Positions 1 through 57,714 of a DNA stretch of 64,000 bases are shown in pieces. Every line of letters starts with the position of its first letter. The first letter of the stretch is position 1. The position numbers were made by a program, and so were the translations under genes. The notes under the pieces were generated by a model. That model made no database searches. It was given only the letters and a program-made list of their open reading frames with translations, and was not told where the DNA came from. This DNA comes from an uncultured Gammaproteobacteria bacterium (GTDB taxonomy: Bacteria > Patescibacteriota > Microgenomatia > UBA1406), in assembly GCA_964414145.1 (NCBI GenBank), contig CAYPVH010000001.1, positions 82,816 through 146,815 on the forward strand, written 5' to 3'.

Positions 1-75
1 GCCAATAAACCAGCAACTCATTGCTGCTGTTAATAAGTAAAAAAGAATAATATTACGTTTCTTGGATTGCCACAT
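1..75 (-). CDS. partial CDS, N-terminus only (MWQSKKRNIILFYLLTAAMSCWFIG...), runs off window start
   Basis: ATG at 75-73 on the minus strand. It is preceded by TGTTATAAT (82-90, minus) with a 6-nt spacer. The ORF is open to the window edge. Confidence 0.3.
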   Translation of the reverse strand, partial: MWQSKKRNIILFYLLTAAMSCWFIG

Positions 76-97
76 TACAATATTATAACACAGAAGC

Positions 98-538
98 TTA
101 TTTCCTCACCATTAATATCCTTGGTTGATTATCATTAAAATAGTTATCTAACCAACCCTTAATTAAGAACTTTTGTTTTAAATAGAATATCACGGCTCCA
201 CTATTTTCCGGATGAACCACTAAACTAAGTGTCTTTCCTTTCTCTATTTCCAAAAGCTTGCCAAACAAAGCAGACGCTAAACCTTTCCGCTGGTACTTAG
301 GTAATACCGCAAGCGCTACTATTTCTATTGTATTTCCTCCTTTCTTTTTATAACCAATATATCCAACTGCTTTCTTGTTTACCTTTGCTATATAAACAGT
401 AACTTTGCCAAAGTACTCCTTAAGTTCTTGTATGTTTTGAAAAACATTATCAAAATAGCGGTTAAAACACTTCTCCTCAAAGCTATATAAAATTTGCGAG
501 TCTTTTTGAATATCTGCCTGTTTAATAACCGGTTGCAT
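98..538 (-). CDS. GNAT family N-acetyltransferase
   Basis: 146 aa. Acetyl-CoA binding motif A-like segment VALAVLPKYQRKGLASALFGKLLE. Confidence 0.7.
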   Translation of the reverse strand: MQPVIKQADIQKDSQILYSFEEKCFNRYFDNVFQNIQELKEYFGKVTVYIAKVNKKAVGYIGYKKKGGNTIEIVALAVLPKYQRKGLASALFGKLLEIEKGKTLSLVVHPENSGAVIFYLKQKFLIKGWLDNYFNDNQPRILMVRK

Positions 539-540
539 TT

Positions 541-1296
541 TTAAGAGTGGAAGCCTTCATATGGCTCTCTACCTTTTTTTATTACAAATACTTTTCCGGT
601 AATTTTGTTGCCCGAATCAGAACACAAATATATAACCTGGCTAGCAATTTCTGCCGGGTTTACTGCCTCATCCATGTATTGCGGGAAATATTTTTTGTAT
701 GCATTTGTTGCAGTGTCAGAAGGAGAAATAGCATTAACCTGTATGTCTTTTCTTTTTAACTCATCTGCAAGACCAATAGTTAAATCTTCAATACCTCGCT
801 TTGAAACATAATAGGGCAACCAACCCTTAGCTCCGTTTTCAAATGTTCCCGAAATATTTATTATTTTCCCCCCGCTTCCCATTAAAGGAATAAAGCCATG
901 AGCCAATAGCGTTGGCGCAACTAAGCCTACCGCAAAGGTGTCTAAAACTACTTCTTCTGAAAAGTTTTCAAAATCAATACCAGCGTACACTTCATCTTTT
1001 CCGTGCCAAATGCCGGCTACATTAACCAAAATATCTACTCTCTTTGTTTTTTGTTTAACTGTTTTAACTAAGTTATTAATTTCCTTAGTATCCGCCAAAT
1101 CGGTAGTTATCATTTCACACTTGCCATTTACTTCTTCAATCAAAGCTTTTGTTTCAAGTAAACCAGTTCTATTGCGGGCAACTAAAAATACAACCGCCCC
1201 CGCTCTTGCTAATTCCAAAGAAATTACTTGTCCAATTCCTGTACTTGCTCCAGAAACTACAGCTACTTTTCCCAAAAACTTTGCTTCATTTTTCAT
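541..1296 (-). CDS. short-chain dehydrogenase/reductase (SDR)
   Basis: 251 aa. Cofactor motif VSGASTGIGQ (TGxxxGxG), catalytic YYVSK (YxxxK), NISG and NAISP segments. Confidence 0.85.
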   Translation of the reverse strand: MKNEAKFLGKVAVVSGASTGIGQVISLELARAGAVVFLVARNRTGLLETKALIEEVNGKCEMITTDLADTKEINNLVKTVKQKTKRVDILVNVAGIWHGKDEVYAGIDFENFSEEVVLDTFAVGLVAPTLLAHGFIPLMGSGGKIINISGTFENGAKGWLPYYVSKRGIEDLTIGLADELKRKDIQVNAISPSDTATNAYKKYFPQYMDEAVNPAEIASQVIYLCSDSGNKITGKVFVIKKGREPYEGFHS

Positions 1297-1422
1297 ATTT
1301 ATTACTTCTAATTATACCTCTCGCTTTTAATTATTCTATTATTACATATCTCACTCTTTTTACTCACATATATAACCCAAAATTTGCATTAACATGAAAA
1401 ATTAATAAGAAAGGAGAGATTA

Positions 1423-1743
1423 ATGGAAAACGCAATAAAAGACACAATGGAGTGTTACAAGGTTTGTGAAGAAACAATGAAATATTGTCATGAAATAGGT
1501 GGTAAACATGTAGAACCAATGCATATGCAAGCAATAATCGATTGCAAAGAAGCTTGCCAAATGGCTACTAGTTTTATGATTCGTGAGTCTGTAATGCACG
1601 GCGATGTTTGCCAACTTTGTGCCGATGCATGCAACAGTTGTGCAGAATCTTGTGAAAAATTTGAAAGCGACAAGGTTATGCAAAAATGTGTCGAAGTTTG
1701 CCGTAGATGTGAAGAATCGTGCAGAGAAATGGCTAGTATGTAG
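1423..1743 (+). CDS. Cys-rich four-helix-bundle protein (DUF326-like, putative metal-binding)
   Basis: 106 aa with repeated C-x3-C / C-x2-C helical spacing (CYKVCEETMKYC, CKEAC, CQLCADACNSCAESC, CVEVCRRCEESC). Strong SD AAAGGAGAG lies upstream. Confidence 0.6.
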   Translation: MENAIKDTMECYKVCEETMKYCHEIGGKHVEPMHMQAIIDCKEACQMATSFMIRESVMHGDVCQLCADACNSCAESCEKFESDKVMQKCVEVCRRCEESCREMASM

Positions 1744-3729: not shown

Positions 3730-4227
3730 TTAACTTAATTTTTTCAACAGTCCCACTTCGCGCTCTACAAACCCAACCGATCTGTATAGTCCTAAGGCAT
3801 TGGAATTAAAACCGTTTGTAGTTATCCATAGTGAATCACAGCCCTTTTTTTTCAGGTATTCTTCCATTTTCTTCATCATTTGCTTGCCAATCCCTTTACC
3901 TCTATGTTCCTTGTCCAAATATACGTCACTAATTATTCCCAACTGTGTTGGCACCACCTCAAGCAAGTTTTCCTCACTTTGCTTGTCTGCCACAAACCCG
4001 GCCACAAAACCAACCGGCTTGCCTGTGTCTTCCACAATATACATTTGCCCTTGGTTGTTACTAATATTTTTCATTAATTTGCCAAAAAACACCTCTACAT
4101 ACCCCGGCATTTTTCGCATTCTTTTTATAGGGTCAATACTAACCACATGGTCATGCAGCCTTTCAAATGCCGCCTTTATAAAAGGCACGTCTGCTTCTGA
4201 GTAGCTCCGCAATCGTGTATTCATCAT
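3730..4227 (-). CDS. GNAT family N-acetyltransferase
   Basis: 165 aa. Motif A HRGKGIGKQMMKKMEEYLKKKG. Confidence 0.75.
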   Translation of the reverse strand: MMNTRLRSYSEADVPFIKAAFERLHDHVVSIDPIKRMRKMPGYVEVFFGKLMKNISNNQGQMYIVEDTGKPVGFVAGFVADKQSEENLLEVVPTQLGIISDVYLDKEHRGKGIGKQMMKKMEEYLKKKGCDSLWITTNGFNSNALGLYRSVGFVEREVGLLKKLS

Positions 4228-4259
4228 TTTTGAGTATAACAGATACAGGCAGTATCTAC

Positions 4260-5053: not shown

Positions 5054-5815
5054 CTATTCCAATATATCCGGATGAATACATTTAGACAATAATAGTTCTT
5101 GCGCTTTTCCTTTGTCTTCGTCACCTATTGGCAATCTAAAAGCGGCTACATTCTTGTCTACCCACTTTATTGCTCCCTCATATTGGTCATCACTATGTGG
5201 TTTTATACATAAATCAGATCCATGTTCCGAAAAAACAGATATCACCCCATCTGCCACCGCCTCAAGTATATCTGCCATTCTGGCTACATATAGCGCAGGG
5301 TTTTCTCTAAGCATTCTGCCATACCCTTCATACGCCCATCTAATAACTTTAACGTCTCCAATTAAGCCATTTCTTGGAAATGCTGAAAGAACCTGCGCCG
5401 GCCTGTTTTTCGCCATATATTCACCGCCTCTCATCCAGCATAAATTGGGGTAGCTGGTAAGCAGTTGTTTAATCGCCGCATCTATTACCAAATTTCGCCC
5501 AGCCATTGCAATAAGCCCTGGAAGTACAAGTCCAGGACCAATTCTTCTTCCTACCGATAATTCACGTATAGCCAGTGTTTTTTGTTCTGCAGGAACTGCT
5601 TCTAACAACCCCTCGTCGGCAATAGCCCTTCCTAAACACTCAATAAAAACCCTCCCAACCGGAGAAGGATCACTTTCTCTTCTTTTAAGCAGGGCTACTC
5701 CTCTTGGCAAAACACTGGCCATTTCTGTCCAGTTATATGCGCCACCCATCCTTTTCCTTTCAACAGATATTATATCTGGTTTTGGTTGTAGAAGATTACC
5801 TTCATGCTCTTCCAT
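5054..5815 (-). CDS. hypothetical protein
   Basis: 253-aa ORF, Arg/Gly-rich. No motif recognised. Confidence 0.5.
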   Translation of the reverse strand: MEEHEGNLLQPKPDIISVERKRMGGAYNWTEMASVLPRGVALLKRRESDPSPVGRVFIECLGRAIADEGLLEAVPAEQKTLAIRELSVGRRIGPGLVLPGLIAMAGRNLVIDAAIKQLLTSYPNLCWMRGGEYMAKNRPAQVLSAFPRNGLIGDVKVIRWAYEGYGRMLRENPALYVARMADILEAVADGVISVFSEHGSDLCIKPHSDDQYEGAIKWVDKNVAAFRLPIGDEDKGKAQELLLSKCIHPDILE

Positions 5816-5893: not shown

Positions 5894-6220
5894 TCATCTA
5901 ATGGTTCCTGGTGATTTTTTTCTTATACCTAAAGCGCTTAGTTTTGTTTGAATAAGTCGAATTATATTCGTTCCTCTACTTTTAGGAGGCAATATAAAAC
6001 TCTTCCACCATTCCGGACAATCCCTCCAAGACTGGCAGGCACCCATAGAATCAGAAAAACCAATATTACGGTCACCGCCAAGATCAGGATATTTTTTGTA
6101 TAACTTGTCAAGTTGTTCTAGAGGAACAATATCTGCAGGACATACTTCGCGTAATCTTAACTTTTCAAGAATCCTTATTATTCTACTTGGTGGATGGAAA
6201 TCAAATTCTGGAGTCACCAT
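5894..6220 (-). CDS. hypothetical protein
   Basis: 108-aa ORF co-oriented with 5054-5815. No motif recognised. Confidence 0.4.
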   Translation of the reverse strand: MVTPEFDFHPPSRIIRILEKLRLREVCPADIVPLEQLDKLYKKYPDLGGDRNIGFSDSMGACQSWRDCPEWWKSFILPPKSRGTNIIRLIQTKLSALGIRKKSPGTIR

Positions 6221-6336
6221 TTACTTAATATAACAAATTACTGCTCCTTTTTTTGAATTAGCACTTTAATCTGTTTACCTTTTTTTATCCTATAACATTG
6301 ACCATACACATTTTTTGTGCTAAAATTGTTGTTCCA

Positions 6337-7394: not shown

Positions 7395-7802
7395 TTATAC
7401 TTCTTTTAAATTATATGCCTCATCTATCCACTTTATTAACTCTGCGTTTATCTCTTCTTTCTTGTGAATATCAATGCAATTTTTATAATATTTCTTGGTT
7501 ACTGGTACGCTCTGTTTTAATCGCTTGCTTTTTAGTACTCGGCTTAGGCCAAATCTTACTTCTATTCTGTCTTTTTTTGGCAAAATCGCCAAAAAATCGT
7601 ACTTGCCAAACAGGTGTATACAGCAGGGGAGCGAAATAACTTTACATTTGCCAATGTTACTTTCAATTTTCCGAAATAAATAATCAAACAACTCTTTAGC
7701 TTTTTCCTTATGTTTAAAATGCACTTCAATTGCAACTTTTTTACAGCTGTGTGGCTGATTTACTTTTTGGAATATTCTTTCGCACTTTGAACAAGTCCAC
7801 AT
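7395..7802 (-). CDS. DUF5655-like protein with N-terminal zinc-ribbon (MWTCSKC...HSC)
   Basis: 135 aa. The family name is recalled from the N-terminal MWTC.KC....NQ.HSC signature only. Confidence 0.45.
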   Translation of the reverse strand: MWTCSKCERIFQKVNQPHSCKKVAIEVHFKHKEKAKELFDYLFRKIESNIGKCKVISLPCCIHLFGKYDFLAILPKKDRIEVRFGLSRVLKSKRLKQSVPVTKKYYKNCIDIHKKEEINAELIKWIDEAYNLKEV

Positions 7803-7918
7803 ACTTCTATTTTATCAGTATCAAATCAGATAATACATAAAATATTATCCTTATATACCAAAGCTTTACTTAAGCCTCTATTGTGCTGCTATAATAGAGT
7901 ATCAATACTAAACCAAGT

Positions 7919-8413: not shown

Positions 8414-8478
8414 AAATTTTCAGTTAAATCTAAAGTTATATTTGCTCTTATCTTTTTCTTTTTATAAACTTTTATTAT

Positions 8479-9261
8479 ATGGAAAAGGAAAGTTCAAATA
8501 CTTCAAGTTCTAGTCCTCAGGCCCTTCCTCAAAACACTCCTCCAATCAAAGAAATCCAAAGCAAAAAATCCCGTTTAACAGTTTTGCTCATTGCTCTTGT
8601 CCTTCTTTTTCTTAGCACTACCGTTTATTTCGCCTACCAAAGCTTTCAAATCAAAAAAGGGCAGAGCACTCTGGAACAGAATGCCACCAGCCCAACATTA
8701 TCCCAGGCACCAACTGTTCCTATCTCACCCCAACCGCAGAAAAAAAAGCAAACAAAAGAATCAGCTAATCTTAAAGAATATATAGACAAAAACGATGAAT
8801 ATAAATTTAGCTATCCTGATGATTGGGTTGTTGTAGACACTATCCCAGAAAAATTTAAATATAAAAAAACCTATGTAGATAATAACAACTTAGAAGAATG
8901 GTTAAGTGGAAAAATGATGATGGAAACTTGCCGTGGCCCCATTCTTCAAAATACTGCAGACAGTAACCAGCTTATTGCTATCGAAATCGTCGATTCCAAT
9001 GGAGACGGTGGGTTCTGCTGGTCGACAGGGTATTTTATGGACGAGCATAAATGGAAGGTTTCCAAGGGCTATATTTACCCAATCGGGAGCAATGTCCACC
9101 ATGAACCAGATTGGAGAGGGGATTATTTTAAAATGGAAATGGCAACCGAAAATTCCAAGTATATTGCCTTTGTAGCCCTAGCCAACTACGAAACTTTCGA
9201 ACTAAAAGGCGAATCAGCGTTTCAGACTATTATCTCTTCTTTTGAGTTTCTCAAAAAGTAA
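8479..9261 (+). CDS. hypothetical membrane-anchored extracytoplasmic protein
   Basis: 260 aa with one TM segment (LTVLLIALVLLFLSTTVYFAY) followed by a Pro/Gln-rich linker. Confidence 0.55.
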   Translation: MEKESSNTSSSSPQALPQNTPPIKEIQSKKSRLTVLLIALVLLFLSTTVYFAYQSFQIKKGQSTLEQNATSPTLSQAPTVPISPQPQKKKQTKESANLKEYIDKNDEYKFSYPDDWVVVDTIPEKFKYKKTYVDNNNLEEWLSGKMMMETCRGPILQNTADSNQLIAIEIVDSNGDGGFCWSTGYFMDEHKWKVSKGYIYPIGSNVHHEPDWRGDYFKMEMATENSKYIAFVALANYETFELKGESAFQTIISSFEFLKK

Positions 9262-9601
9262 ATTTTGGCTTTGCTTTGAGTAGGCTTATAAACAAAAATA
9301 GCGAAAAGACAATATAAGCCATATCTATCCAGCCTACTTGGTCAAATATAGAGGCCACTATACCCGCTCCAACCAGGCATAGTGCTCCCCACCAAGCCCA
9401 CGCTTTCTTTTTTCCAACAAAGTGAGCCAATATAAATACTGCCAAAGAGTATCCTGTACCAAGAATAGAATACAAATATCGGAAAGGGGAGTCGCGAAAA
9501 AACCAGATAATGGCAAAAGCTAGCCAAAAAAAGGCAAATACATACAGCCACCTTGTTAGCGCCTGCAGCTTCATTATAAAAACAGTATAACTTTTTACCA
9601 A
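9251..9601 (-). CDS. small membrane protein
   Basis: 116 aa with 4 hydrophobic segments. Confidence 0.45.
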   Translation of the reverse strand: MVKSYTVFIMKLQALTRWLYVFAFFWLAFAIIWFFRDSPFRYLYSILGTGYSLAVFILAHFVGKKKAWAWWGALCLVGAGIVASIFDQVGWIDMAYIVFSLFLFISLLKAKPKFTF

Positions 9602-9618: not shown

Positions 9619-10134
9619 TTATTTTTTCAGCGCCTTTTTCAATATTTCTTGAATAATTTCTCTTTTAGCACTCATATACGAAAAAACATCTTGCTTCCCC
9701 TCGTTTACCGCTTTCTCTTTTACATCTGCATATTTTTTTGCCTCTTCTGGATTACTTCGAAGAAAGTTTCTAAAAGCCATTGCTTGTTTAAAGTCCTCTG
9801 CTTCAAAATGGTTTAAATGAATATGGTACTTTCTTGTTTTATCAATAGGGTCGGGTAGGTCAGTACTAAAAAAGGGGTGTCCGGTTATTTTGGTTCCTCG
9901 TGGTTTGTATTCATATCCTGCTCGTTCTATTTCTTGAGATATTTTTTTTAGATTTTGCTTTAAAGCTACAATAAAAATATCTATTACTCCTTTTCCTCCC
10001 AAGCCAGGAACGGCAGTACTACCGCAGTGTTCTATTTTATAAACTCCAGACAAATAATTAGATAGTCGTTCTTTCTCTTTCTTAAAAAGCTCGGGAAAAA
10101 TCGGGTTATATGTTTTGAAAACGTATTTACTCAT
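9619..10134 (-). CDS. GrpB (UPF0157) family protein
   Basis: EHCGSTAVPGLGGKGVIDI and HIHL motifs typical of GrpB nucleotidyltransferase-fold proteins. Confidence 0.8.
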   Translation of the reverse strand: MSKYVFKTYNPIFPELFKKEKERLSNYLSGVYKIEHCGSTAVPGLGGKGVIDIFIVALKQNLKKISQEIERAGYEYKPRGTKITGHPFFSTDLPDPIDKTRKYHIHLNHFEAEDFKQAMAFRNFLRSNPEEAKKYADVKEKAVNEGKQDVFSYMSAKREIIQEILKKALKK

Positions 10135-10176
10135 AAGTTAAATATAACCAAAATTTCTCGGCTTCAATCGGACTGC

Positions 10177-11253
10177 TTAAGCATGAATAATTTTTAGTAA
10201 ATTAACGTTTGCATATAAATGATATTTTCCAACTTTTTTACTCTTTAAAAAATCTGCTTTTTCAAGAGCTTCTAAATATCTGCTTGCAGTTGTGTAATGT
10301 ATTCCCAGCTCATTCGATAATTTTACAGGTGAGATGATAGGGTAAGCAAAAAGCGCTTCAACCAAATCGGCAGAATAAATTTTTTTATTATTTGTTTTTA
10401 GTAGTTTTTTAGTACGGTAATAAAGACTCATTATTTTAAATACCATTTCTTTTGTCTCTTTTGCTTGCATGTAGAACCCTTTTATCATGAAAAATAAATA
10501 GTCATACCAATTATTTTTTTCGGTCACCTCTAGCAGCAATCGATAATAATCACTCTTTTTTTTATTGATATAACCACTGATATATAAGATAGGCAAGTTT
10601 AGAATTTGTTGTTGAACAAGATCTAATACCATTAGCATTCTTCCGACTCTTCCGTTTCCGTCTGAAAACGGATGAATTGCTTCAAATTGATAATGAGCAA
10701 TTGCACATCTAACTAAAGGGTCTGCTTTTAAATCTACATGACCATTCATAAATAATTCTAAATTACTCATATAATCAGGAATTTTTGCAGCTTCGGGTGG
10801 AGTATAAATAATAGTTCTTGTATGTGTATTTTCAATTCCATTCTGAGTTTTACGATAAACTCCCCCAATTCTTGGCGCAATAACTTTATGCATTGCTAGA
10901 ATAATCCGAGTCGAAAGGGAATATTTATTTAGTTTTTCCTGACCAAGTAGTATAGCATCCCTATACCTAAGTACTTCTTTATCAGGTATTTTTTGTTCTG
11001 CCTCTGGAAAAAGTTGATTCTCTAAAACTTCCACCATTGTAGTTTTAATATTTTCTACTTCCGAGCTTGCAAGTGATTCTTTAATTATTGCTGGAGATAG
11101 TAATAGAAGTTGATTTGGCATTGAAAAACTATATCCTTTTAGTTCACCAAGTTCTGATCTAGCTTTTATCAGTAGGTCTGTTATTGTTTCTGTTTTATAG
11201 TCTAATTTTGGAGGTAATTTTGCCAACATATGAGGCCTATTTGGGTTAAACAT
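10177..11253 (-). CDS. Fic family protein (AMPylase-type) with N-terminal inhibitory helix
   Basis: Fic motif HPFSDGNGRVGRM. SSEVEN matches the (S/T)xxxE(G/N) auto-inhibition motif. A wHTH-like C-terminus is present. Confidence 0.9.
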   Translation of the reverse strand: MFNPNRPHMLAKLPPKLDYKTETITDLLIKARSELGELKGYSFSMPNQLLLLSPAIIKESLASSEVENIKTTMVEVLENQLFPEAEQKIPDKEVLRYRDAILLGQEKLNKYSLSTRIILAMHKVIAPRIGGVYRKTQNGIENTHTRTIIYTPPEAAKIPDYMSNLELFMNGHVDLKADPLVRCAIAHYQFEAIHPFSDGNGRVGRMLMVLDLVQQQILNLPILYISGYINKKKSDYYRLLLEVTEKNNWYDYLFFMIKGFYMQAKETKEMVFKIMSLYYRTKKLLKTNNKKIYSADLVEALFAYPIISPVKLSNELGIHYTTASRYLEALEKADFLKSKKVGKYHLYANVNLLKIIHA

Positions 11254-11440
11254 AAAATTAATATATCATAATTATTCTAATTTTGCAATATATCAGTAGA
11301 ATCATGTTGCTCTATGTTATATAACACTTGTCATTGTTACAAATGCATAAATTCAATCTTGCATAAAACATTTGCCCTTTTTTCTTCAATAATAACGGTC
11401 GCTTTCATCCTTAGCTTTAAGCTAGTGATATAATTTTAGA

Positions 11441-11827
11441 ATGCTAGGCGTTGATCATGAACAGCACAGTCAGGCTTCTGAACTAGTAAAAAAACCAAAA
11501 TCATTCACCAATATCCCTATGGTTTCGGCAGAAGGCGCATATAACAACTATATGGCAGCCATACAAGAACCGTTACCAGAACAGCAAAAAATGTTTGACG
11601 TTTTCTTTGAAGCATTACAATTAGAAGCACAAGGGTTGGGTGAATTTAAGGATTTATGGCTCAATTACCAGTTAATCATTGCCTACATCAATTCAGGGCA
11701 ATGGGAATTTGCACTTCAAGCCATAGATGACGCTCTGCTTCTTGCAGCAAATTTAGGTAAGGGTGAAAGTATTTTTTCTAAACTTCTAGATCAAGTTTTA
11801 GCAAATATTGGAAATAGTGGAGAATAA
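11441..11827 (+). CDS. hypothetical protein, paralog of 38446-38976
   Basis: C-terminal block DLWLNYQLIIAYINSGQWEFALQAIDDALLLAANLGKGE aligns with the 38446 product. TGATATAAT lies 6 nt before the ATG. Confidence 0.55.
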   Translation: MLGVDHEQHSQASELVKKPKSFTNIPMVSAEGAYNNYMAAIQEPLPEQQKMFDVFFEALQLEAQGLGEFKDLWLNYQLIIAYINSGQWEFALQAIDDALLLAANLGKGESIFSKLLDQVLANIGNSGE

Positions 11828-11862: not shown

Positions 11863-12780
11863 TTACAGCGAACTAACAACAATTCCTATTATAATACTGG
11901 CTATACCCAGTAGCTGGGTTTTGCTTACTCTTTCCTTAAGTAAAAAATAAGCCAATACAATAGTTGGCAGCGTATATGAGTTGGCTATTAATGTAATTAA
12001 ACTGGTGGTATTGGTAGAAATTGAATAGCCCCAAGTAGTACCCAAATATGCAATAGCATCAAGAAGCGCAACAGGAATCAGTATTGCAATAACACCTTTG
12101 TAGCCACTTAGTAAATTCTTGTTTTTATTGGTAGCAAAAAAATACAAGCTTAACAGTATGCCAATTACCAGCTTCAGTGCTATCAACCAAAAAAGCCACT
12201 CCACGCCACCCACAAACCTGTCCCAAAGAGGAAACCAAAATCCAAGAATAATCAATGCGCCAATGGCTTCGGGAATCCCTTTTTTTAGGTTGCTTCTTGA
12301 AAAGCTCTTTTTTAAGTCATTAAAATCGGTTGAAGTAATTAAAATTCCTAAAAATATCAAAATTACACCAATCAATCCGGTACTGGAAAGGCTTTCTTTA
12401 AACAGGAAAACGGCAACAAGAACAGAAAAGCCGGCTGCGCTTGAAGCAATCGGGCTAACAATAGACATCACTCCTTTTTGAAAAGCACGGTATAAAAGTA
12501 AGTAGCCCGCGCCGTCGAGCGCCGCTAAAGCTACCAAATAAACAAGCGCAACTGAAGTTATGGTTGGAATAGGTGAGCCGGTAAATAGAAAATAGATAAG
12601 CAGGGCAATGCCCCCAATAATTTGCGAGCCGATCAGTGTTTTTAAGTCACCTATTTTATCTATTGTTTTCTTGGCAAAAAAGTCTGAAATGCCCCAACCA
12701 AGCATTCCCGACAACCCAGCTATAATGGCAATCATAATGTTATTCATGATAATTCTACAAATACTATACCAACTTAGCAC
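11863..12780 (-). CDS. EamA/DMT family transporter
   Basis: About 10 TM segments in two EamA-like halves. The start is uncertain (GTG 12780 or ATG 12747). Confidence 0.75.
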   Translation of the reverse strand: MLSWYSICRIIMNNIMIAIIAGLSGMLGWGISDFFAKKTIDKIGDLKTLIGSQIIGGIALLIYFLFTGSPIPTITSVALVYLVALAALDGAGYLLLYRAFQKGVMSIVSPIASSAAGFSVLVAVFLFKESLSSTGLIGVILIFLGILITSTDFNDLKKSFSRSNLKKGIPEAIGALIILGFWFPLWDRFVGGVEWLFWLIALKLVIGILLSLYFFATNKNKNLLSGYKGVIAILIPVALLDAIAYLGTTWGYSISTNTTSLITLIANSYTLPTIVLAYFLLKERVSKTQLLGIASIIIGIVVSSL

Positions 12781-12839
12781 CCAAAAAGCATATAAGCATA
12801 CAATAATTTATTCATTGTTTTGCAGTTTGGCTTAGCATA

Positions 12840-14611: not shown

Positions 14612-14727
14612 ATATTCTAAATGGCTCACCACAGCTAATTTAAGATGAAACTAATCCAATAATTCACTATAATATGCTTATTTAATAGGCCTATATCAAA
14701 TTTTAGTAAGTATATTATTACACTAAT

Positions 14728-18261: not shown

Positions 18262-18263
18262 TT

Positions 18264-43797: not shown

Positions 43798-43847
43798 TAA
43801 AGTGCCATTGCCTAGAAAATCTCCTCAATCATGGCTATAATCATATA

Positions 43848-45147: not shown

Positions 45148-45849
45148 ATGGTAAAACAAGTTCCTCATATTGAGTTAGAAAATGTTGTAAAGCGCTATCC
45201 TGTCGGTAAAAATGAATTCTACCAAGCTTTAAATGGCGTTAGTTTAAAAGTAAATCAAGGCGACTTTATTGCCATTATGGGCCCCTCGGGAAGCGGCAAA
45301 TCTACCCTAATGCATATAATGGGCGCTCTCGATACTCCCACTTCTGGCAATCAATATTTTAAAGGCAAAAACATCGCCAGCTACAGCGAGAATCAACTCG
45401 CCGAAGTAAGAAATAAGGAAATCGGCTTTGTTTTTCAGTCTTTTAATCTTCTCTCACGCACCAGTGTGCTTAAAAATGTAGAACGCCCCATGATGTATGC
45501 TGGCATCCCTCCCAAAGAACGGAACAATAGAGCTCTAGCCACACTCGCTCAAATGGGAATTGCCGACAAGGCAGAGAATCTTTCCAATCATATTTCTGGT
45601 GGTCAAATCCAAAGAGTAGCTATTGCCCGTGCTTTAGTTATGAACCCCTCAATTATCCTTGCCGACGAACCCACCGGCAACCTCGATACCAAAACCGCCA
45701 CCGAAATTATGAATATTTTTACCAATCTTAATCAAAAAGGCAGCACGGTTGTGGTTATCACTCACGAGCCAGATATCGCTGCATTCGCCAAAAGCAGAAT
45801 TCACCTTGTCGACGGAAAAATCGTTAAAAATATAATAAACAGCAAATGA
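45148..45849 (+). CDS. ABC transporter ATP-binding protein (MacB/LolD-type)
   Basis: Walker A GPSGSGKST, signature ISGGQIQRVAIARAL, Walker B ILADEPTGNLD. Start set at MVKQV. Confidence 0.95.
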   Translation: MVKQVPHIELENVVKRYPVGKNEFYQALNGVSLKVNQGDFIAIMGPSGSGKSTLMHIMGALDTPTSGNQYFKGKNIASYSENQLAEVRNKEIGFVFQSFNLLSRTSVLKNVERPMMYAGIPPKERNNRALATLAQMGIADKAENLSNHISGGQIQRVAIARALVMNPSIILADEPTGNLDTKTATEIMNIFTNLNQKGSTVVVITHEPDIAAFAKSRIHLVDGKIVKNIINSK

Positions 45850-49863: not shown

Positions 49864-49968
49864 AGTATAACCTTATTTTTTAATATATAGGTTATTATAA
49901 CATGAAACAATATTCCTCAACTTATCTCATATTTTCAAAATACTAAAAAAAACATATACAATTTATCT

Positions 49969-50190
49969 ATGAAAATCAATGTTATTGCCCATCCCAATTC
50001 CAAACACCCCAGAGTAGAAACAGACTTACTCGGACGCATGCATGTCTATGTAGCCGCCCCGCCGCTCGAAGGCAAGGCCAACAAAGCCATAATAGAAATA
50101 CTTGCCAAACATTTCAAGGTACAAAAATCTAAAGTCATTCAAGTTAACGGGTTTAAAGGCAAAAACAAAACCTTCGAAATAAATAGGTAG
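49969..50190 (+). CDS. DUF167 (YggU) family protein
   Basis: HVYVAAPPLEGKANKAIIEILAKHFKVQKSKVIQVNGFKGKNKTFEI. Confidence 0.85.
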   Translation: MKINVIAHPNSKHPRVETDLLGRMHVYVAAPPLEGKANKAIIEILAKHFKVQKSKVIQVNGFKGKNKTFEINR

Positions 50191-50228
50191 TCTTGTGATA
50201 TGTAGTCCTATAATATATAATTCTAAAA

Positions 50229-50993
50229 ATGGTTGTAGAACAAGGCATAATTAATGGCTTAATAATTGCCGGTGGTTTTGGTACTCGTTCTGGCTTAGAA
50301 AATCTCCCCAAAGGTCTGGTTGAACTTGGAGACAGTACAACAATTATTGATCATATTATTAAAGAAATGCTTCAACTTCATGCTTTAGGGCAAAGAGCGC
50401 TTATTAGTAACGCCAAATTCTATGGCGCTTATAAAGCTTGGTTAGAAGAAATGGGCTACAGCAGGCAAATAACACTAGTAAATAACGGTGTTAGTGAGCC
50501 CGAAAACCGCCTTGGGGCAATAGGCGACATTCTTTTTGCCCTAAACCAGCTTGATTGGCCAGTCAATCAGGGCCTACTGGTTTTGCCAAGCGATACTCTT
50601 TTTCAGTTTGCCCTTGCTCAATTTATCAAGTTTGCACAAAACAGATCCGGACTAAGCACGGTTCTTTACAGAACTGAGCCTGAAATAATTGCCAATCGCC
50701 TTGGCTGTGCCACAATCAACCAGAGAGGAGAAATTGTGGCTTTTCAAGAAAAACCAGCCCAACCGCAGTCAAACCTAGCCGTAGCTCCTTTTTATTTTTA
50801 CCACCCCAAAACGCTACCCGAGCTTAATAGATTTGCAGAACATGGTGGTAATCTCGATGCCCCCAGCAATATTATTCCATATCTTTTAGCAAACAGGGTG
50901 CCCGTATCTGCCTTTGTTACAAACGCCCCTGTAAAAGACATCGGCACACAGGCAGACATCCAAGCTCTAATGCTTGCAGAAGTAGTAAAATAG
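50229..50993 (+). CDS. sugar-phosphate nucleotidyltransferase-like protein
   Basis: N-terminal LIIAGGFGTRSG...LPKGLV resembles the NTP_transferase G-loop. Confidence 0.6.
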   Translation: MVVEQGIINGLIIAGGFGTRSGLENLPKGLVELGDSTTIIDHIIKEMLQLHALGQRALISNAKFYGAYKAWLEEMGYSRQITLVNNGVSEPENRLGAIGDILFALNQLDWPVNQGLLVLPSDTLFQFALAQFIKFAQNRSGLSTVLYRTEPEIIANRLGCATINQRGEIVAFQEKPAQPQSNLAVAPFYFYHPKTLPELNRFAEHGGNLDAPSNIIPYLLANRVPVSAFVTNAPVKDIGTQADIQALMLAEVVK

Positions 50994-51027
50994 TAAATCT
51001 TTATGTTCTTTTATATAATCTAGACAG

Positions 51028-51840
51028 ATGAAATTTGCCTATAAAAATTTTATTAGTTCTGTATTAGGTACTGCCGCCAAAATTGCCAGCCAAAATTTTG
51101 GCCTGGTTACCAGTTCTGTTAAGGCTGCAGACAGTAATCAAGTGTTAACCAAAACAGATATCGAAATTGGCCAGCTAATTGTAACTAGTATTCAACAACA
51201 ATTCCCCATGCATAATATTATCGATGAAGAAGCCGGGGTCATCAATAAAAATTCTGATTATACTTGGGTTGTTGACCCAATAGACGGTACCAGCAATTTT
51301 GCTGCTGCTATTGCAACCTATGGGATTTTGCTCGGGCTTCTTAGAGAAGGTCTGCCTCTAGCTGGTGGGGTAGTATTGCCTGCATCTAAGGAACTCTATT
51401 ATGCCGAAAAAGGTAGTGGTGCCTATTGCAACGGCGCGCCTATTTTTGTAAGCAAAGAACAAAAACTTATTAATGTGCTCGTTGCCTACGGAATAGACGG
51501 CCATCAGGAAAATCCAGAATTTACTCAAAAAGAATGCGAAATTCTGGCAGAAATAGTTCTTAATATTCGTAACCTGCGCTCCAGCAATAGCTGTTTTGAC
51601 TTTATGCAAGTAGCCAAAGGAAAGTATGGGGCTTATCTCAACCAAACCAGCAAAATCTGGGACAACGTAGCCCCGCAAATTATTATTGAAGAAGCCGGCG
51701 GAGTTTATACCGACTTTTTTGGCAATCCTCCCGACTACTCCAGCCCCCTTGAAAAAACCGAAACTAACTTCACATTCTGCACAGGAGCACCACAGCTACA
51801 TCAAGCTTTACAAAAAATAATCAAACATAAGCACAAATAG
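51028..51840 (+). CDS. inositol monophosphatase family protein
   Basis: IIDEEAG and WVVDPIDGTSNF motifs. Confidence 0.9.
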   Translation: MKFAYKNFISSVLGTAAKIASQNFGLVTSSVKAADSNQVLTKTDIEIGQLIVTSIQQQFPMHNIIDEEAGVINKNSDYTWVVDPIDGTSNFAAAIATYGILLGLLREGLPLAGGVVLPASKELYYAEKGSGAYCNGAPIFVSKEQKLINVLVAYGIDGHQENPEFTQKECEILAEIVLNIRNLRSSNSCFDFMQVAKGKYGAYLNQTSKIWDNVAPQIIIEEAGGVYTDFFGNPPDYSSPLEKTETNFTFCTGAPQLHQALQKIIKHKHK

Positions 51841-51857: not shown

Positions 51858-52199
51858 TTATCCATTAATGGCATTTTGATCCAAAAGTGCTTCATAAAAA
51901 GTCACTATATTTATGGCCTCTTCTCCACTAACAAAATTGTTTACTAACTGAATGTAAGTAGCAAAGCCGGTTCTTCTCACTATTTCATATACTGCGTCAA
52001 ATAGATCTTCTGCTATCCCTGCACTACGCGGAGAATTTAAAACAACTAAGTTTAGCAATCCTTCTCGACCATAAAAATATTCCTCGCTAAGAGCTCCTTT
52101 ACTCACAAATATATAGGGCAGATACTTCCCAGGGAGAGCTCGGTAAAGTTTTATCATTACATCCAACAATGTAGGCGCTTCTTTATGTTCTGCTGTCAT
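51858..52199 (-). CDS. hypothetical protein
   Basis: 113-aa ORF. No motif recognised. Confidence 0.45.
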   Translation of the reverse strand: MTAEHKEAPTLLDVMIKLYRALPGKYLPYIFVSKGALSEEYFYGREGLLNLVVLNSPRSAGIAEDLFDAVYEIVRRTGFATYIQLVNNFVSGEEAINIVTFYEALLDQNAING

Positions 52200-52269
52200 A
52201 CGGGCTATTATATCATAATCTATTATAGGTCTATTATTTATTTAAACATTCCTCTATAATCTACTAACA

Positions 52270-52698
52270 ATGAAAAAGGGTGTTGACTATATTGGTGTTT
52301 CCGTTGGGGCAATAATTGTTAATGATAAAGGAGAGGTTTTTCTTTCACTACGAAGTAAAAATTGTCGTAATGAAGTTGGTCACTGGGAAAACCCAGGTGG
52401 CGCAGTAAAGTTTGGCGAGTCGCTTGAGGAAGCGGTAAGACGCGAGATTAGAGAAGAGTATGGCGTGGAGGTGAATATAATTAAACAATTTCCCGCCGCC
52501 GACCATTTTATTCCAGCAGAAAAACAACACTGGGTAGCCACTACTTTTTTAGTAAAAATAAAGACAGGTCAAAAACCAAAAATCATGGAACCGAATAAAT
52601 GTGATGCTGTGGGGTGGTTTAAATTAAGCAAACTCCCTAAACCTTTATCTATAATTACCAAACACAACCTACAAAACTTTAAAAAATTAGGGTCTTGA
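52270..52698 (+). CDS. NUDIX hydrolase
   Basis: Nudix box GGAVKFGESLEEAVRREIREEYGV. Confidence 0.9.
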   Translation: MKKGVDYIGVSVGAIIVNDKGEVFLSLRSKNCRNEVGHWENPGGAVKFGESLEEAVRREIREEYGVEVNIIKQFPAADHFIPAEKQHWVATTFLVKIKTGQKPKIMEPNKCDAVGWFKLSKLPKPLSIITKHNLQNFKKLGS

Positions 52699-53451: not shown

Positions 53452-53544
53452 TCTTATTCAGTTAATTTTCTGTAATCATTATATATATATTTTACTTTCT
53501 TCTCATCTTAATTTGTCATCCTAAATTTATATAATATATCTCTT

Positions 53545-54600
53545 ATGGCAAAACTAACTAACAAAACCACTCCCGCCTTTATGCTTTTAATTCTAGCTGT
53601 AGTTGTTTACTCTCTCTTTTCTTATGTCTTTAAAAACACAACAACGGTCAAGTTGCAAAATAACAAAAATAATCCGGTAATTAACAGCCCCACTCCTTTT
53701 CCTTTTCAAGAATTATCCATTCCATACCTTCGCTCTCGCGCCTTCAATAGTCAATTAACAAAACCCCAGAAAATTAGCCAAAACAATAGTTATACTAGCT
53801 ATTTAACCAGCTATAAATCAGACGGCTATAAAATCAACGCCCTTCTTACTAAACCAAACAAAAAGCAACCAGAAAACGGTTTTCCGGCTATTGTTTTTGT
53901 TCATGGTTATATTCCACCGGAAGAGTACAAAACAACGGAAAAGTACGAAGATTATGTTGATTACTTAGCCAGAAGCGGCTTTGTTATTTTAAAAATAGAT
54001 CTTCGTGGCCACGGCCAATCTGAAGGTGAACCAAGTGGTGCTTACTATTCGGGCGATTACGTTATAGATACCTTAAACGCCTACAGCGCCCTTGAAAATA
54101 GCGATTTTGTAAACAATAAGGCCATCGGTCTTTGGGGCCACAGCATGGCTGGCAATGTTATTTTACGCGCTGTTGCCGTCAACGCCAATATTCCAGCCGT
54201 TGTAATTTGGGCTGGAGCCGTTTATACTTACCAAGATTTTCAAGAATATGGCATTCAAGACAATTCCTATCAACCCCCCTCACCTAGTTCCAAAAGAAAA
54301 GAAAAAAGAGAAAAGCTCTTTAACCTGTATGGTGGCTTTTCCAAAAGTAGCCAGTTCTGGCAAAGCGTAGTTCCAACCAACTACATAGCAAACTACCAAG
54401 GCGCCATTTCCCTCAATCATGCTAAAAATGACCAAGTAGTCGATATTCGTTTTAGTACCAATCTAAAAAAAATCTTAGAAAACCAAAATATTGAGCATGA
54501 ACTTAATATTTATAATGATGGCGGTCATAATATTGATGAACCCGCCTTTTCAAACGCCATGCAAAACACTGTTTCGTTTTTTCAAAAACACCTGCTTTAA
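53545..54600 (+). CDS. alpha/beta hydrolase (S9/dienelactone-hydrolase-like), membrane-anchored
   Basis: Nucleophile elbow GLWGHSMAGN. D and H residues near the C-terminus (NDGGHN). Confidence 0.8.
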   Translation: MAKLTNKTTPAFMLLILAVVVYSLFSYVFKNTTTVKLQNNKNNPVINSPTPFPFQELSIPYLRSRAFNSQLTKPQKISQNNSYTSYLTSYKSDGYKINALLTKPNKKQPENGFPAIVFVHGYIPPEEYKTTEKYEDYVDYLARSGFVILKIDLRGHGQSEGEPSGAYYSGDYVIDTLNAYSALENSDFVNNKAIGLWGHSMAGNVILRAVAVNANIPAVVIWAGAVYTYQDFQEYGIQDNSYQPPSPSSKRKEKREKLFNLYGGFSKSSQFWQSVVPTNYIANYQGAISLNHAKNDQVVDIRFSTNLKKILENQNIEHELNIYNDGGHNIDEPAFSNAMQNTVSFFQKHLL

Positions 54601-54629
54601 ACTAACTTAGGGTTTATAATTTGAATACG

Positions 54630-55760
54630 ATGAAAAAGTTTTGTTTTTACATCAGCAGCATTCTTTTTCTACTGATTCTTGCCATTAAAGTTGACACCCC
54701 TTCCTTTGCACAGCAAAATACCGGCGAAACACTAGAAGCCGTTGTTATGGAGGTCGTTGAACAAAATACTGTTAGTAACCAATTTAGTCCTGAACTGCAA
54801 ACTTATCAGAAACTAAAACTAAATGTTACAGCGGGTTCGCTTAAGGGTAAAAACATTGTGGTAGAGAATGGAAATATAAATATTGCCAACAATCAAATAT
54901 ATGATAAGGGGGACAGGGTAATAGTAAATTACAGTAAAGCAGCTACCGGTCAACCTAATTTTTACATAACCGGTTATATTCGCCGAATGCCTCTTACGGT
55001 ACTTTTTTTAATATTCGTTTTGTTTGTTGTTTTAATCGGTAAAATAAGAGGTATTAGCTCACTTTTGGCAATGATTGCTTCTTTTGCTGTTATTTTTGTT
55101 TTCATTTTACCCCGAATCAACAATGGGCAAAACCCAGTTGTTACCGCCATTACCGGATCAGCACTTATTATTCCTCTTACCTTCTATCTGTCTCACGGTT
55201 TAAGCCGAAAAACAACAATCGCCATATTAGGTACTTTTATTGCCCTCATCATTACCAGCATTCTGGCAACGTTTTTTGTAGACGCTGCAAAACTCACTGG
55301 CTTTGCTTCTGAAGAAGCCGCCTTTCTCCAGTTTAGTAGTGGTCAACTGATTAATATGAAAGGCTTGCTTTTAGCTGGTATCATAATCGGTTCACTTGGG
55401 GTACTTGACGACATTACTATTTCCCAATCATCAATTGTATATGAGTTAAAAAACACCAACCCCAATCTTAGTCAAAAACAACTCTACCAAAAGGCAATGA
55501 ATATCGGGCAAGATCATATTTCTTCTATGGTAAATACACTGATTCTGGTCTACACCGGCGCCGCCCTGCCGCTTCTTTTGCTTTTTATTAACAACCCACA
55601 CCCATTTACCGAAATTATAAACTACGAAATTATTGCCGACGAAGTGGTTCGCACGCTTGTGGGCAGTATTGGCCTAATTTTAGCCGTCCCCATTACTACC
55701 GCCCTGGCTTCTGTCTATTCTGTCGCAGATGAAACACAAAAAGAGGCTGCAAATAATTAA
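54630..55760 (+). CDS. YibE/F family membrane protein
   Basis: Signal/anchor segment, an extracytoplasmic domain, then about 7 TM segments with GVLDDITISQSS. The start is either ATG 54630 or TTG 54621. Confidence 0.6.
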   Translation: MKKFCFYISSILFLLILAIKVDTPSFAQQNTGETLEAVVMEVVEQNTVSNQFSPELQTYQKLKLNVTAGSLKGKNIVVENGNINIANNQIYDKGDRVIVNYSKAATGQPNFYITGYIRRMPLTVLFLIFVLFVVLIGKIRGISSLLAMIASFAVIFVFILPRINNGQNPVVTAITGSALIIPLTFYLSHGLSRKTTIAILGTFIALIITSILATFFVDAAKLTGFASEEAAFLQFSSGQLINMKGLLLAGIIIGSLGVLDDITISQSSIVYELKNTNPNLSQKQLYQKAMNIGQDHISSMVNTLILVYTGAALPLLLLFINNPHPFTEIINYEIIADEVVRTLVGSIGLILAVPITTALASVYSVADETQKEAANN

Positions 55761-55810
55761 AAATTACCCATCACCAACCTTGTGTACTGCTTTCAAATAA
55801 GGTATAATAG

Positions 55811-56104
55811 GTTATCGTAAAAACTAAATTACCTCAAAAAACATCAAGAAAATGCCATAAATGCGGCAGCCCGCTTTTACTCGTTGATACCTTTGTTGAA
55901 AAAGTTCAAGGTCAATACGGCGACATCACAACTTCTATCTACAACTGCTCTAACCCGGAATGCAAAAAAGCAACCGACGCTAAAATAATCGAACTAAAAA
56001 ATAAGAAAGAAGAAAAAGAACAGTTGCAAAAAGACAGACAACAAAGAATTCAAGAAAGCCGAGTTCGAGCTAAAAAAAATAAAGAAAAAAACCAATCTCA
56101 ATAA
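55811..56104 (+). pseudogene. zinc-ribbon ORF (CHKC...CSNPEC plus a Lys-rich tail) with no canonical start codon
   Basis: A 97-codon open frame follows the TAG at 55808-55810. TATAAT lies at 55803-55808. There is no in-frame ATG, GTG or TTG before the zinc ribbon. Confidence 0.3.
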
Positions 56105-56185
56105 CCATTGCTCTCTGTATACCTACCGTCTCCCCGAAATACACTAAGCCTGTATTTAAAATATATGTATTTAGCAAGTTTTCAG

Positions 56186-56476
56186 TTAGGCTTTGTTTTT
56201 TATCCTTAAAAAGAAAGTCGAGATAAATAAGAAAATAAACAGTCCGTATGGCGATAAAAACAAGCTAAAAAGCAAACCAAATATACCAATACCAACCAGT
56301 TTCTGAAAATTTTCACCAGACATAAAGATTTTTAATATTAAAAAATAAAGAAATAAAACTATCAAAGACTCGAACCGAAAAGGGGAAAGGGGAATTTGCA
56401 TCAAATGTGTTGCTAACAAGAAACCACCAAAAATCAATGTTGCCGCATTAAATTTATTACTAAGTTCATTGTTCAT
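56186..56476 (-). CDS. small membrane protein
   Basis: 96 aa with 3 hydrophobic segments. Confidence 0.4.
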   Translation of the reverse strand: MNNELSNKFNAATLIFGGFLLATHLMQIPLSPFRFESLIVLFLYFLILKIFMSGENFQKLVGIGIFGLLFSLFLSPYGLFIFLFISTFFLRIKNKA

Positions 56477-56679
56477 ATTTACCTCCTAAACAACTCAAAT
56501 AAAAAAAACCAACCCTTGTCTAAAACATAATACTGGTCAATAAAAAAAGCCACAATAAAAGCCGTTAACAGTAATAAAAAAGGCTTTACCCATCGAATTA
56601 TCATTTACTTTATATTCTAATTGATTATAAATAATCTGCAAACTTTTCGATTTCTCAAAAAACATACTATAATTAAGTC

Positions 56680-57714
56680 ATGCGCCCAAGCTTTTTGAAA
56701 TTATTAATTATTATTTGTGCTGGTTTTGCTTTATTGGGGGCTAAATCTGTTATTGCTTCTGTCTCTATTGAAAGCTATTGCAGTAACGGCTGGTATCAAA
56801 ATCCCAGCGAACCACAATACGACTCCTGTAGTCGCGCCCCATATTGCGGCGGTGTGCAATACCAAGAACTGTGTACCGACGATCAGCTGCCAGACGCCCA
56901 GCGCTGTGTTGGTGACGACCAGGCTTGTCAGGGTTATGTACCGTATTGTTGTTACGAAATGGCCCGAACTGGTGATTACAGTAAATGCATTGGTTATTGG
57001 GAACGTCTTTGGTGCGCCCCCGTACAATGCGCCGAAGCTAAAGCTAATGGCGCCAAAAACAGTCAGTGCCCAGAAGAAGCCTGCAATTGCGCCCACGCCT
57101 TTAAATATTACTGTGGCGACCGTCCGGTGATTCCGGTTGAAACCCGCTTTGGTCTACCGTATCAACCACCCAGCCCTACATCGCCACCAGCTCAACCGTC
57201 AACCACCCCACCCTCAACCCCTCCTCAAATAACCAACTCTCCTTCTCAGCCAATACCGACTCCTGCAAATCAACCGGGAATTAATCACCCCTTTGAAGTT
57301 ACTTACCCAACCGCTTCTCCTCAAAAAAGCAGCGGCAGTTTTACTGACGCTTACTTTTATACCCAAAACCAAATTGCAAAGGGTAGTTATAATCAGTCTC
57401 CGCTTCCCCAAAAATCCAACAATCTGCTTCCAAGTTCTGACTTGGTAAATAACCCCAATTCCAATGTATTTGCCGACCTTTTAAAAGATGCTCAAAACAG
57501 TTCAAAACTGCCTCAAATTACATTAAAATTACCAAACATTCAAACTCTTAAGAACGAAATTTTCTTTAGTCTGTTACCCCAGTTGTTAAAAACTCAAAAA
57601 CTACTTGCACTGCCAAAAATAATGTTTAACTATGTTTATAACCTTGATAATCGACTCAATACCGTACTTTCCGGCTCTTTGCACTCTCTCATAAACAACA
57701 TGTCAAGTCCTTAA
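56680..57714 (+). CDS. secreted Cys-rich / Pro-rich protein
   Basis: Signal peptide, then 22 Cys within the first 145 aa, then a PPSPTSPPAQPSTTPPSTPP linker. Confidence 0.65.
   Translation: MRPSFLKLLIIICAGFALLGAKSVIASVSIESYCSNGWYQNPSEPQYDSCSRAPYCGGVQYQELCTDDQLPDAQRCVGDDQACQGYVPYCCYEMARTGDYSKCIGYWERLWCAPVQCAEAKANGAKNSQCPEEACNCAHAFKYYCGDRPVIPVETRFGLPYQPPSPTSPPAQPSTTPPSTPPQITNSPSQPIPTPANQPGINHPFEVTYPTASPQKSSGSFTDAYFYTQNQIAKGSYNQSPLPQKSNNLLPSSDLVNNPNSNVFADLLKDAQNSSKLPQITLKLPNIQTLKNEIFFSLLPQLLKTQKLLALPKIMFNYVYNLDNRLNTVLSGSLHSLINNMSSP

Follow-up and report, generated by a model that had tools for sequence, protein, structure and literature searches.

What does it mean that a TATAAT-like hexamer stands only a few nucleotides upstream of so many start codons in one stretch of a bacterial genome? 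The stretch, called the window hereafter and numbered from its first letter, comprises the whole 64 kb that were analyzed (positions 82,816–146,815 of contig CAYPVH010000001.1, GenBank assembly GCA_964414145.1). A preliminary description had reported a -10-like hexamer 6–9 nt before the start codon at 22 or more of its genes and had proposed that most operon-leading genes look leaderless. The pattern proved to be real and robust, and more extensive than this description had suggested. From the geometry and its statistics, from promoter-like features of the hexamers and from their recurrence in relatives, we infer, with a probability of about 80%, a pervasive leaderless gene organization that arises from -10 boxes abutting start codons.

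All 22 hexamer–spacer–ATG triples listed earlier were recovered in place. Every one of their hexamers fits TANNNT, and 20 match TATAAT at five or more of the six positions; the exceptions are two TAAACT sites (14320 and 20343), which are copies of one 292-nt repeat and thus not independent of each other. The list was incomplete, with 43 candidate sites counted here, 40 of them with ATG and three with a tentative GTG as the start codon. For the statistics, a box was defined as a hexamer at least 5/6 identical to TATAAT, and the spacer as the nucleotides between hexamer and ATG. A motif-first scan, in which the distance from every such hexamer of TANNNT form on both strands to a downstream ATG was recorded for spacers of 0–40, gave 28, 19, 14, and 15 ATGs at spacers 6, 7, 8, and 9, compared with ~8–10 at each of the other spacers; when only ATGs opening an open reading frame (ORF) of at least 80 aa were counted, the numbers were 17, 12, 5, and 7, compared with ~2 elsewhere. 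A gene-first analysis used 79 genes, each started at its 5′-most ATG by a rule that ignores the motif. A box at spacer 6–9 preceded 34 of the 79, whereas dinucleotide shuffling of the 50 nt upstream of each gene, repeated 1000 times, gave 4.4 ± 2.0 (maximum 13). Spacers other than 6–9 in the same regions accounted for 0–3 genes each, and the box rate was 1.8% at internal in-frame ATGs and 2.2% at out-of-frame ATGs. When no motif was assumed beforehand, the top hexamer at this position was again TATAAT, with 19 occurrences observed, compared with 0.31 expected window-wide and 1.43 expected from distal upstream sequence.

The window has a GC content of 38% and its intergenic gaps are 74% AT, so that AT-rich gaps might yield chance TANNNT hexamers near ATGs, or the TAA contained in TATAAT might produce the register by bounding ORFs in frame. 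Because the intergenic DNA is so rich in AT, gap-only controls were run on those 58 genes that are preceded by at least 20 nt of non-coding sequence. A box was present in 32 of them, as against 3.7 ± 1.9 in gap-confined shuffles and 6.2 ± 2.4 (maximum 16 of 2000) in rotations that keep the hexamers and break their register with the ATG. The spacer peak follows the order 6 > 7 > 9 > 8 without 3-periodicity, and at spacers 6–7 the TAA does not share the frame of the ATG, which rejects an ORF-bounding TAA as the source of the signal. Among the loci taken from other genomes (see below), the negative control, a 26%-GC locus from a Bacilli metagenome-assembled genome (MAG; L001, with an MltG 25% identical), showed no box peak; AT-richness is thereby excluded as the cause. 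In a relative with 51% GC, the peak was still present. The preliminary description had called for shuffled and intragenic controls and had held that its reading would fall if the enrichment vanished against a composition-matched background; the enrichment stayed throughout, the controls run here refute a composition artefact, and we regard that explanation as scarcely credible.

Sequence features around the boxes support the view that they are sigma-70-type -10 elements and not an RNA signal. TGn precedes 13 of 37 boxes (35%) as opposed to 41 of 661 hexamers of this kind elsewhere in the window (6.2%), a ~5.7-fold difference in keeping with the earlier remark that an extended TGn is often present. 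Alignment on the box revealed T at -23/-24 and G at -21, equivalent to a weak TTG with a 17-bp spacer, and the gene at 63043 has a textbook promoter, TTGACA-17-TGnTATTAT. No SD (Shine–Dalgarno) element intervenes between hexamer and start, as had been claimed (GGAG, GAGG, and AGGA in 0 of 37 spacers). An archaeal-type box 22–26 nt upstream was also sought, and no peak was seen at spacers of 20–30 in the window.

The presence of a box depends on the gap upstream of the gene: it is found in 32 of the 58 genes that have at least 20 nt of gap in front and in 2 of the 21 that have less (Fisher p = 2.5e-4), and genes that overlap the previous gene or start within 7 nt of its stop mostly have neither box nor SD. 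An own box at 5–9 nt was present in 15 of 16 same-strand genes spaced 24–66 nt apart; most transcription units thus look monocistronic, and an "operon" usually consists of one gene. Leaderless-looking starts make up about half of all genes and 55–60% of genes with their own gap. In the earlier description, the term first-in-operon was misleading, since nearly all close neighbors carry a box as well.

The same 15 genes, operon-internal by distance rules and without terminators in their gaps, could also be understood if the TATAAT-like element worked at the RNA level, as a non-SD ribosome-binding or enhancer motif on leadered or polycistronic mRNA of the kind placed in GeneMarkS-2 "group B" (Bacteroidetes). 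A spacing of 6–9 nt is usual for ribosome-binding sites too, and SD elements are rare in this genome and its relatives. However, the element has the exact sigma-70 -10 consensus together with the TGn excess and the TTG at 17 bp, which are features of DNA recognition; to our knowledge, neither TGn nor a TTG at 17 bp has a role in ribosome binding. It is also missing from 19 of the 21 overlapping or abutting genes, where a ribosome-binding site would be most needed, and it lies 20–45 nt upstream of genes that already have an SD, where it cannot act as a ribosome-binding site. On this evidence, we consider an RNA-level motif unlikely.

An SD-like element was found in only seven genes, six of the AAGGAGG type plus a GGGGG at 57842. 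The four strong SDs pointed out earlier, at 1423, 22262, 29653, and 63043, are all real. They belong to AAAGGAG-6-ATG(1423) (1405–1425, plus strand); to an amidase gene with a short SD leader, where TATAAT 20 nt upstream is followed by AGGAG and ATG(22262) (22260–22291, minus strand); to AAGGAGG-9-ATG(29653) (29635–29655, plus strand), the first gene of an overlapping cluster in a putative island; and to the gene at 63043, whose promoter is followed by a leader with AAGGAGG and ATG(63043/63034) (62973–63045, plus strand). The other three are AAGGAGG-9-ATG(18264) of an internal gene (18246–18266, plus strand), AGGAGG-5-ATG(56476) (56474–56494, minus strand), and mltG/yceG (57792–57844, plus strand), with TATAAT 44 nt upstream and the GGGGG before ATG(57842). 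Genes with an SD carry the same box farther upstream, at 20 nt (22262), 24 nt (13115), 37 nt (60276), and 44 nt (mltG), and the genes at 1296, 7919, 41546, 49863, and 53451 have a box 14–30 nt upstream and no SD. The remaining genes, which are overlapping or abutting with several leadered ones among them, mostly lack an SD-type ribosome-binding site; those that overlap or abut are presumably translated by coupling (termination–reinitiation). The dual initiation regime proposed earlier accordingly stands for the leaderless-looking and SD-led starts and has to be extended by a third class with neither signal. No rRNA gene was found within the 64-kb window, and AAGGAGGTG elements at a few genes point to a canonical anti-SD that is probably intact in the 16S rRNA encoded outside it.

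Alignments bear on whether the box-adjacent codons are the true starts. Pfam profiles for GIY-YIG, SemiSWEET, nucleotidyl transferase, inositol monophosphatase, and MFS begin within residues 1–15 counted from the box-adjacent ATG, and the response regulator (61801) aligns from residue 1 with an orthologue in the relative L005 (82% identity), in which the aligned ATG is preceded by TGTTATAAT-7 (TGnTATAAT-7-ATG). For this orthologue (L005 17955–18040), the public call starts 9 nt earlier, at an ATG within the box, which is one clear miscall. That SD-based callers miss such starts more generally was an overstatement, as the public NCBI or JGI protein begins at the box-adjacent ATG in four of five ambiguous cases. 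The boxes might still be promoters while many of the adjacent ATGs are not real starts, with translation beginning at a downstream codon of a leadered mRNA: the starts were set by rule, and a few window genes do have alternative starts 3–30 nt away. We judge this quite unlikely in view of the Pfam and orthologue alignments, and a promoter would have no reason to hold a 6–7-nt register to a non-functional ATG.

The following mechanism would account for the pattern. The -10 elements, often extended as TGnTATAAT, would need little or no -35 element. Sigma-70 holoenzyme starts ~7 nt past the last -10 base and prefers a purine. At spacers 6–7, +1 would fall on the A of the ATG, and at spacers 8–9 it would fall 1–3 nt before; the earlier claim that the spacing equals the distance from -10 box to transcription start is consistent with this. 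The resulting mRNAs would have no 5′ leader or SD, and the ribosome with initiator tRNA would bind the 5′-terminal AUG directly. Almost every gene preceded by 24 nt or more of non-coding sequence would have a promoter of this kind. Most transcription units would start at a single gene with its own promoter in a short gap, overlapping or abutting genes would be reached by translational coupling, and a small minority would have a conventional leader with AAGGAGG and a promoter 20–45 nt upstream.

Several observations weigh against this mechanism or restrict it. A full -35/-10 scan of 36–56 kb found 60 promoters, compared with 47.6 ± 6.2 in shuffles, and was not enriched; the promoters are thus -10-dominated, and it is the -10 region that carries the case for promoters. 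Intrinsic terminators in the same 36–56 kb were not enriched either (22, compared with 17.3 ± 4.7) and none was found in the short gaps, so that read-through transcripts with these ATGs internal probably exist as well. The sites with spacers 8–9, about a quarter, may give 1–3-nt leaders and not none, and some of the 79 ORFs may be spurious or mis-started.

The 43 candidate sites are as follows, with the extent from box to start codon in brackets. Those listed earlier on the minus strand are TGnTATAAT-6-ATG(75) (73–87), whose ORF runs off the window end; TGnTATATT-6-ATG(11253) of a Fic protein (11251–11265); and TAGAAT-6-ATG(28692) of a Schlafen/AlbA-like gene, the first of a pair with Shedu (28690–28704). 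On the plus strand, the earlier list held TATAAT-6-ATG(2090), 168 aa (2078–2092); TGnTATAAT-6-ATG(11441) (11429–11443); TGnTAAACT-7-ATG(14333) and TGnTAAACT-7-ATG(20356), the first that of a SemiSWEET-like gene, in repeat copies 1 (14320–14335) and 2 (20343–20358); TGnTATAAT-8-ATG(20676) (20662–20678); TTGAAA-17-TATAAT-7-ATG(36394) of a radical SAM gene (36381–36396), the best two-hexamer promoter (11/12); TAAAAT-7-ATG(37908) (37895–37910); TGnTATAAT-6-ATG(38446) (38434–38448), where the public call has the same start; TAAAAT-6-ATG(39043) of an MFS transporter (39031–39045); TGnTAGAAT-6-ATG(40237) (40225–40239); TGnTATACT-6-ATG(41641) (41629–41643), which the public call also uses, and not ATG 41620; and TGnTATACT-7-ATG(42073) (42060–42075). 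Farther along the same strand it held TATAAT-6-ATG(43848) of an HlyD-family gene, the first of a MacB-type cluster (43836–43850); TACAAT-6-ATG(49969), 73 aa (49957–49971); TATAAT-7-ATG(50229) of a nucleotidyl transferase (50216–50231); TATAAT-8-ATG(51028) of an inositol monophosphatase (51014–51030), with the previous stop 34 nt before; TATAAT-9-ATG(52270) (52255–52272); TATAAT-9-ATG(53545) of a hydrolase (53530–53547); and TATAAT-6-ATG(56680) (56668–56682).

New sites on the minus strand are TGnTATACT-5-ATG(4227) (4225–4238), which may alternatively be read with spacer 8 to ATG 4224; TGnTATATT-6-ATG(6220) (6218–6232); TGnTAAAAT-6-ATG(7802) (7800–7814); TATACT-9-ATG(9574) (9572–9589); TATATT-6-ATG(10134) (10132–10146); TATGCT-6-GTG(12780) of an EamA transporter (12778–12792), a tentative GTG leaderless start; TAAAAT-7-ATG(14004) (14002–14017); TATAAT-7-ATG(23003) (23001–23016); TATAAT-6-ATG(36232) of the GIY-YIG gene (36230–36244); TAAAAT-8-ATG(37852) (37850–37866); TGnTATAAT-7-ATG(52199) (52197–52212); and TGnTATAAT-9-ATG(61801) of the response regulator (61799–61816), in full TGGTATAAT-9-ATG. 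Those on the plus strand are TAAACT-8-ATG(8479) with a weak 4/6 box (8465–8481); TATAAT-6-ATG(19357) (19345–19359) and TATAAT-9-ATG(54630) of a YibE/F gene (54615–54632), for both of which the public call has the same start; TACAAT-6-GTG(58929) of a DUF2177 gene (58917–58931), with the same GTG in the JGI call (125 aa); and TATAAT-7-ATG(63324) (63311–63326). Four sites complete the count. TATTAT-7-ATG(5081) (5079–5094, minus strand) is doubtful, its start overlapping the upstream gene by 28 nt; TATTAT-9-GTG(14728) of a 1177-aa surface protein (14713–14730, plus strand) is tentative; TATAAT-9-ATG(45846) of the MacB permease (45831–45848, plus strand), with a start that overlaps the upstream gene by 4 nt, sits in coding sequence and is a possible internal promoter; and for TGnTAAAAT-7-ATG(61859) of the histidine kinase (61846–61861, plus strand), the public call is ATG 61850 instead.

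The window is densely coding and contains ordinary chromosomal genes for MltG/YceG, a MacB-type ABC exporter with its HlyD partner, MFS and EamA transporters, an inositol monophosphatase, and a response regulator and histidine kinase pair, together with a defence/recombinase cluster. In all of its 4-kb bins, irrespective of gene orientation, the GC skew has a negative value (-0.05 to -0.21), and this suggests an effect of the replication strand, the window lying entirely on one replichore. The best named matches of its MltG, at ~50% identity, come from Candidatus Levybacteria, Microgenomates group bacterium (LiPW_16), and Candidatus Moranbacteria; its closest large relative, at 68% identity, lies on an NCBI MAG contig, and proteins identical to those of the window occur on JGI metagenome contigs and one 285-kb NCBI contig. 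Judging from these protein matches, the window comes from a bacterium of the Patescibacteria, or Candidate Phyla Radiation (CPR), probably of a Microgenomates-like lineage, with any finer placement approximate.

The recurrence of the boxes was followed in 20-kb loci around mltG from relatives (L005–L008), with the Bacilli locus as the control. A box at 5–9 nt was present in 12 of 30 called starts in L006 and in 11 of 24 in L007, the latter from a Levybacteria MAG, and TGn was present at ~80% of the sites in these two loci. In orthologous pairs between them, box and spacing are kept and the spacer sequence differs. Leaderless-looking GTG/TTG starts also occur there, for example, TGATATAAT-6-GTG at L006 8763 and TATAAT-6-GTG at L007 6429. 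L005, the relative with 51% GC, has a box in 5 of 24 genes and more SD-led genes, and the Moranbacteria locus L008 has few boxes. The mltG gene itself (10001 in the Levybacteria relatives L006 and L007) starts with TGGTATAAT-8-ATG, identical in both and leaderless-looking, whereas in the window and in L005 it is leadered, in L005 with the box at a distance of 22 nt; orthologues thus switch from one mode of initiation to another.

A metagenome scan with an MltG alignment provided 80 more Patescibacteria loci, from which 789 genes were pooled under the blind start rule. A box preceded 142 of them, compared with 29.9 ± 5.5 in shuffles and a rate of 1.4% at internal ATGs; spacer 6 accounted for 70 genes, 42 of them with TGn, and spacers 7–9 for 31, 23, and 20, over a background of ~8. 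The fraction of boxed genes per locus ranged from 0 to 0.41, with the window highest at 0.47, and SD-like elements were rare in almost all loci of relatives. Grouped by best named MltG reference, the fractions were 27% for Levybacteria-like, 22% for Microgenomates-like, and 14% for Moranbacteria-like loci, labels that are too crude for a phylogenetic claim. In this part of the Patescibacteria, the trait occurs widely but unevenly. One further related locus, L009, includes the 16S 3′ end with CACCTCCTTTC (~18434–18500) and a canonical anti-SD (GATCACCTCCTTTC-like: ...GAATCACCTCCTTTCT); few of its genes (1 of 17) look leaderless, and its anti-SD says little about leaderless loci.

Other elements of the window stand beside these genes. 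A 246-nt group I intron (Rfam RF00028, 105 bits) splits the anticodon loop of a tRNA-Asn(GUU) gene (35630–35950, minus strand; exon 1, 35950–35917; exon 2, 35670–35630; CCA encoded), and ARAGORN detects the tRNA only after in-silico splicing; group I introns in CPR tRNAs have been mentioned previously (PMC8172020). Adjoining the tRNA gene, the region ~25841–35683 looks like an integrated element, with Shedu SduA_C (25841–27223, minus strand), the Schlafen/AlbA-like protein (27241–28692, minus strand), an N6-methyltransferase with a TaqI_C domain (31467–33416), and a large serine recombinase (34169–35683), the 3′ end of whose gene overlaps the tRNA-Asn 3′ exon on the opposite strand. The plus-strand genes of the element (29653–35683) are overlapping or abutting and led by a strong SD, with no -10 box at their starts, unlike the surrounding genome. 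The 86-aa GIY-YIG gene (36232–35972, minus strand) lies directly upstream of the intron-bearing tRNA and is flanked, within 35955–36262, by a perfect 15-nt inverted repeat, CCGCCGGTAGGCGGA (36262–36248) and TCCGCCTACCGGCGG (35969–35955); the unit may be a small mobile cassette or else a gene flanked by hairpins. Two directly repeated 292-nt segments (14298–14589 and 20321–20612, 91% identity) each contain a SemiSWEET-like gene (MtN3_slv/PQ-loop) together with a promoter box, and between them lies a 6-kb block that encodes the 1177-aa CarboxypepD_reg/CARDB surface protein and has three other genes.

Patescibacteria/CPR account for a large part of bacterial diversity, and very little has been reported on how they start transcription and translation. 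In the literature searched on CPR, Patescibacteria, Saccharibacteria, Microgenomates, and Parcubacteria, with subscription journals mostly outside the search, no description of leaderless genes or promoter–start geometry was found. The mechanism is already known, and the lineage-level description appears to be new, although a prior mention is possible. Since the mechanism is established elsewhere and gene callers already pick most of the starts, the value of the finding lies at the level of the lineage and not in a new principle. If half of the genes are leaderless, the scarcity of SD elements is explained, in line with the trimmed ribosomes of the group. A bolder proposal, to which we give somewhat less than an even chance, is that leaderless extended -10 starts are the main expression mode of the whole Microgenomates-like branch of Patescibacteria, with SDs and intrinsic terminators almost dispensable and nearly every non-overlapping gene its own unit within a gap of 25–65 nt. 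This mode may be linked to, or may have permitted, the reduced ribosome (short S1, missing proteins); were this true, small CPR genomes would be a natural model for how promoter and start codon can be coupled in a minimal and perhaps ancestral way. The pattern also offers TGnTATAAT-N6-7-ATG as a promoter model for genetic tools and a start-site rule for MAG annotation; as a prediction, 5′ ends in metatranscriptomes should accumulate at start codons.

Among known systems, the closest comparison is with GeneMarkS-2 "group C", described as common in Actinobacteria and Deinococcus-Thermus and as rare in other groups, for which a Pribnow box 6–8 nt before the start is the published leaderless signature, checked against differential RNA sequencing (dRNA-seq) in M. 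tuberculosis and Deinococcus deserti (PMC6028130). As in group C, the -10 box of the window stands 6–8 nt upstream of genes with their own upstream region, the -35 is weak, no SD intervenes, 25–50% or more of transcription units are concerned, and the other genes initiate differently. The window differs in its lineage (Patescibacteria/CPR, 38% GC), in transcription starts that are predicted from sequence, in a box that is a full TATAAT, often with TGn, and not a loose TANNNT, and in promoters packed into 24–66-nt gaps; most of its remaining genes lack an SD, whereas group C was described with ribosome-binding sites for the remaining genes.

CPR ribosomes have a short bS1 (3–4 domains), have often lost bS21, and in about half of Parcubacteria have lost the anti-SD (Tsurumaki et al. 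2022, PMC9297842), a study in which leaderless mRNAs and promoter–start geometry are not mentioned. The window belongs to the same superphylum, and the features of this reduced apparatus fit a low reliance on SDs; its genome still uses AAGGAGG at a few genes, with an anti-SD that is probably intact. Archaeal leaderless genes (GeneMarkS-2 "group D") likewise have transcripts that start at the start codon in a large fraction of units, but the archaeal TATA box lies 22–26 nt upstream, the peak in the window lies at 6–9 nt, and its proteins are bacterial (MltG, MacB). Group B is set apart in that 19 of the 21 genes whose gap is below 20 nt lack the motif, with an ambiguity for the 15 of 16 close genes that carry it. 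In the extended -10 promoters (TGnTATAAT) of E. coli and Gram-positive bacteria, sigma-70 region 3.0 contacts the TG and the -35 is dispensable. The window promoters resemble them in the enriched TGn (35%) and the weak -35, and they differ from extended -10 promoters in general in being positioned by the start codon.

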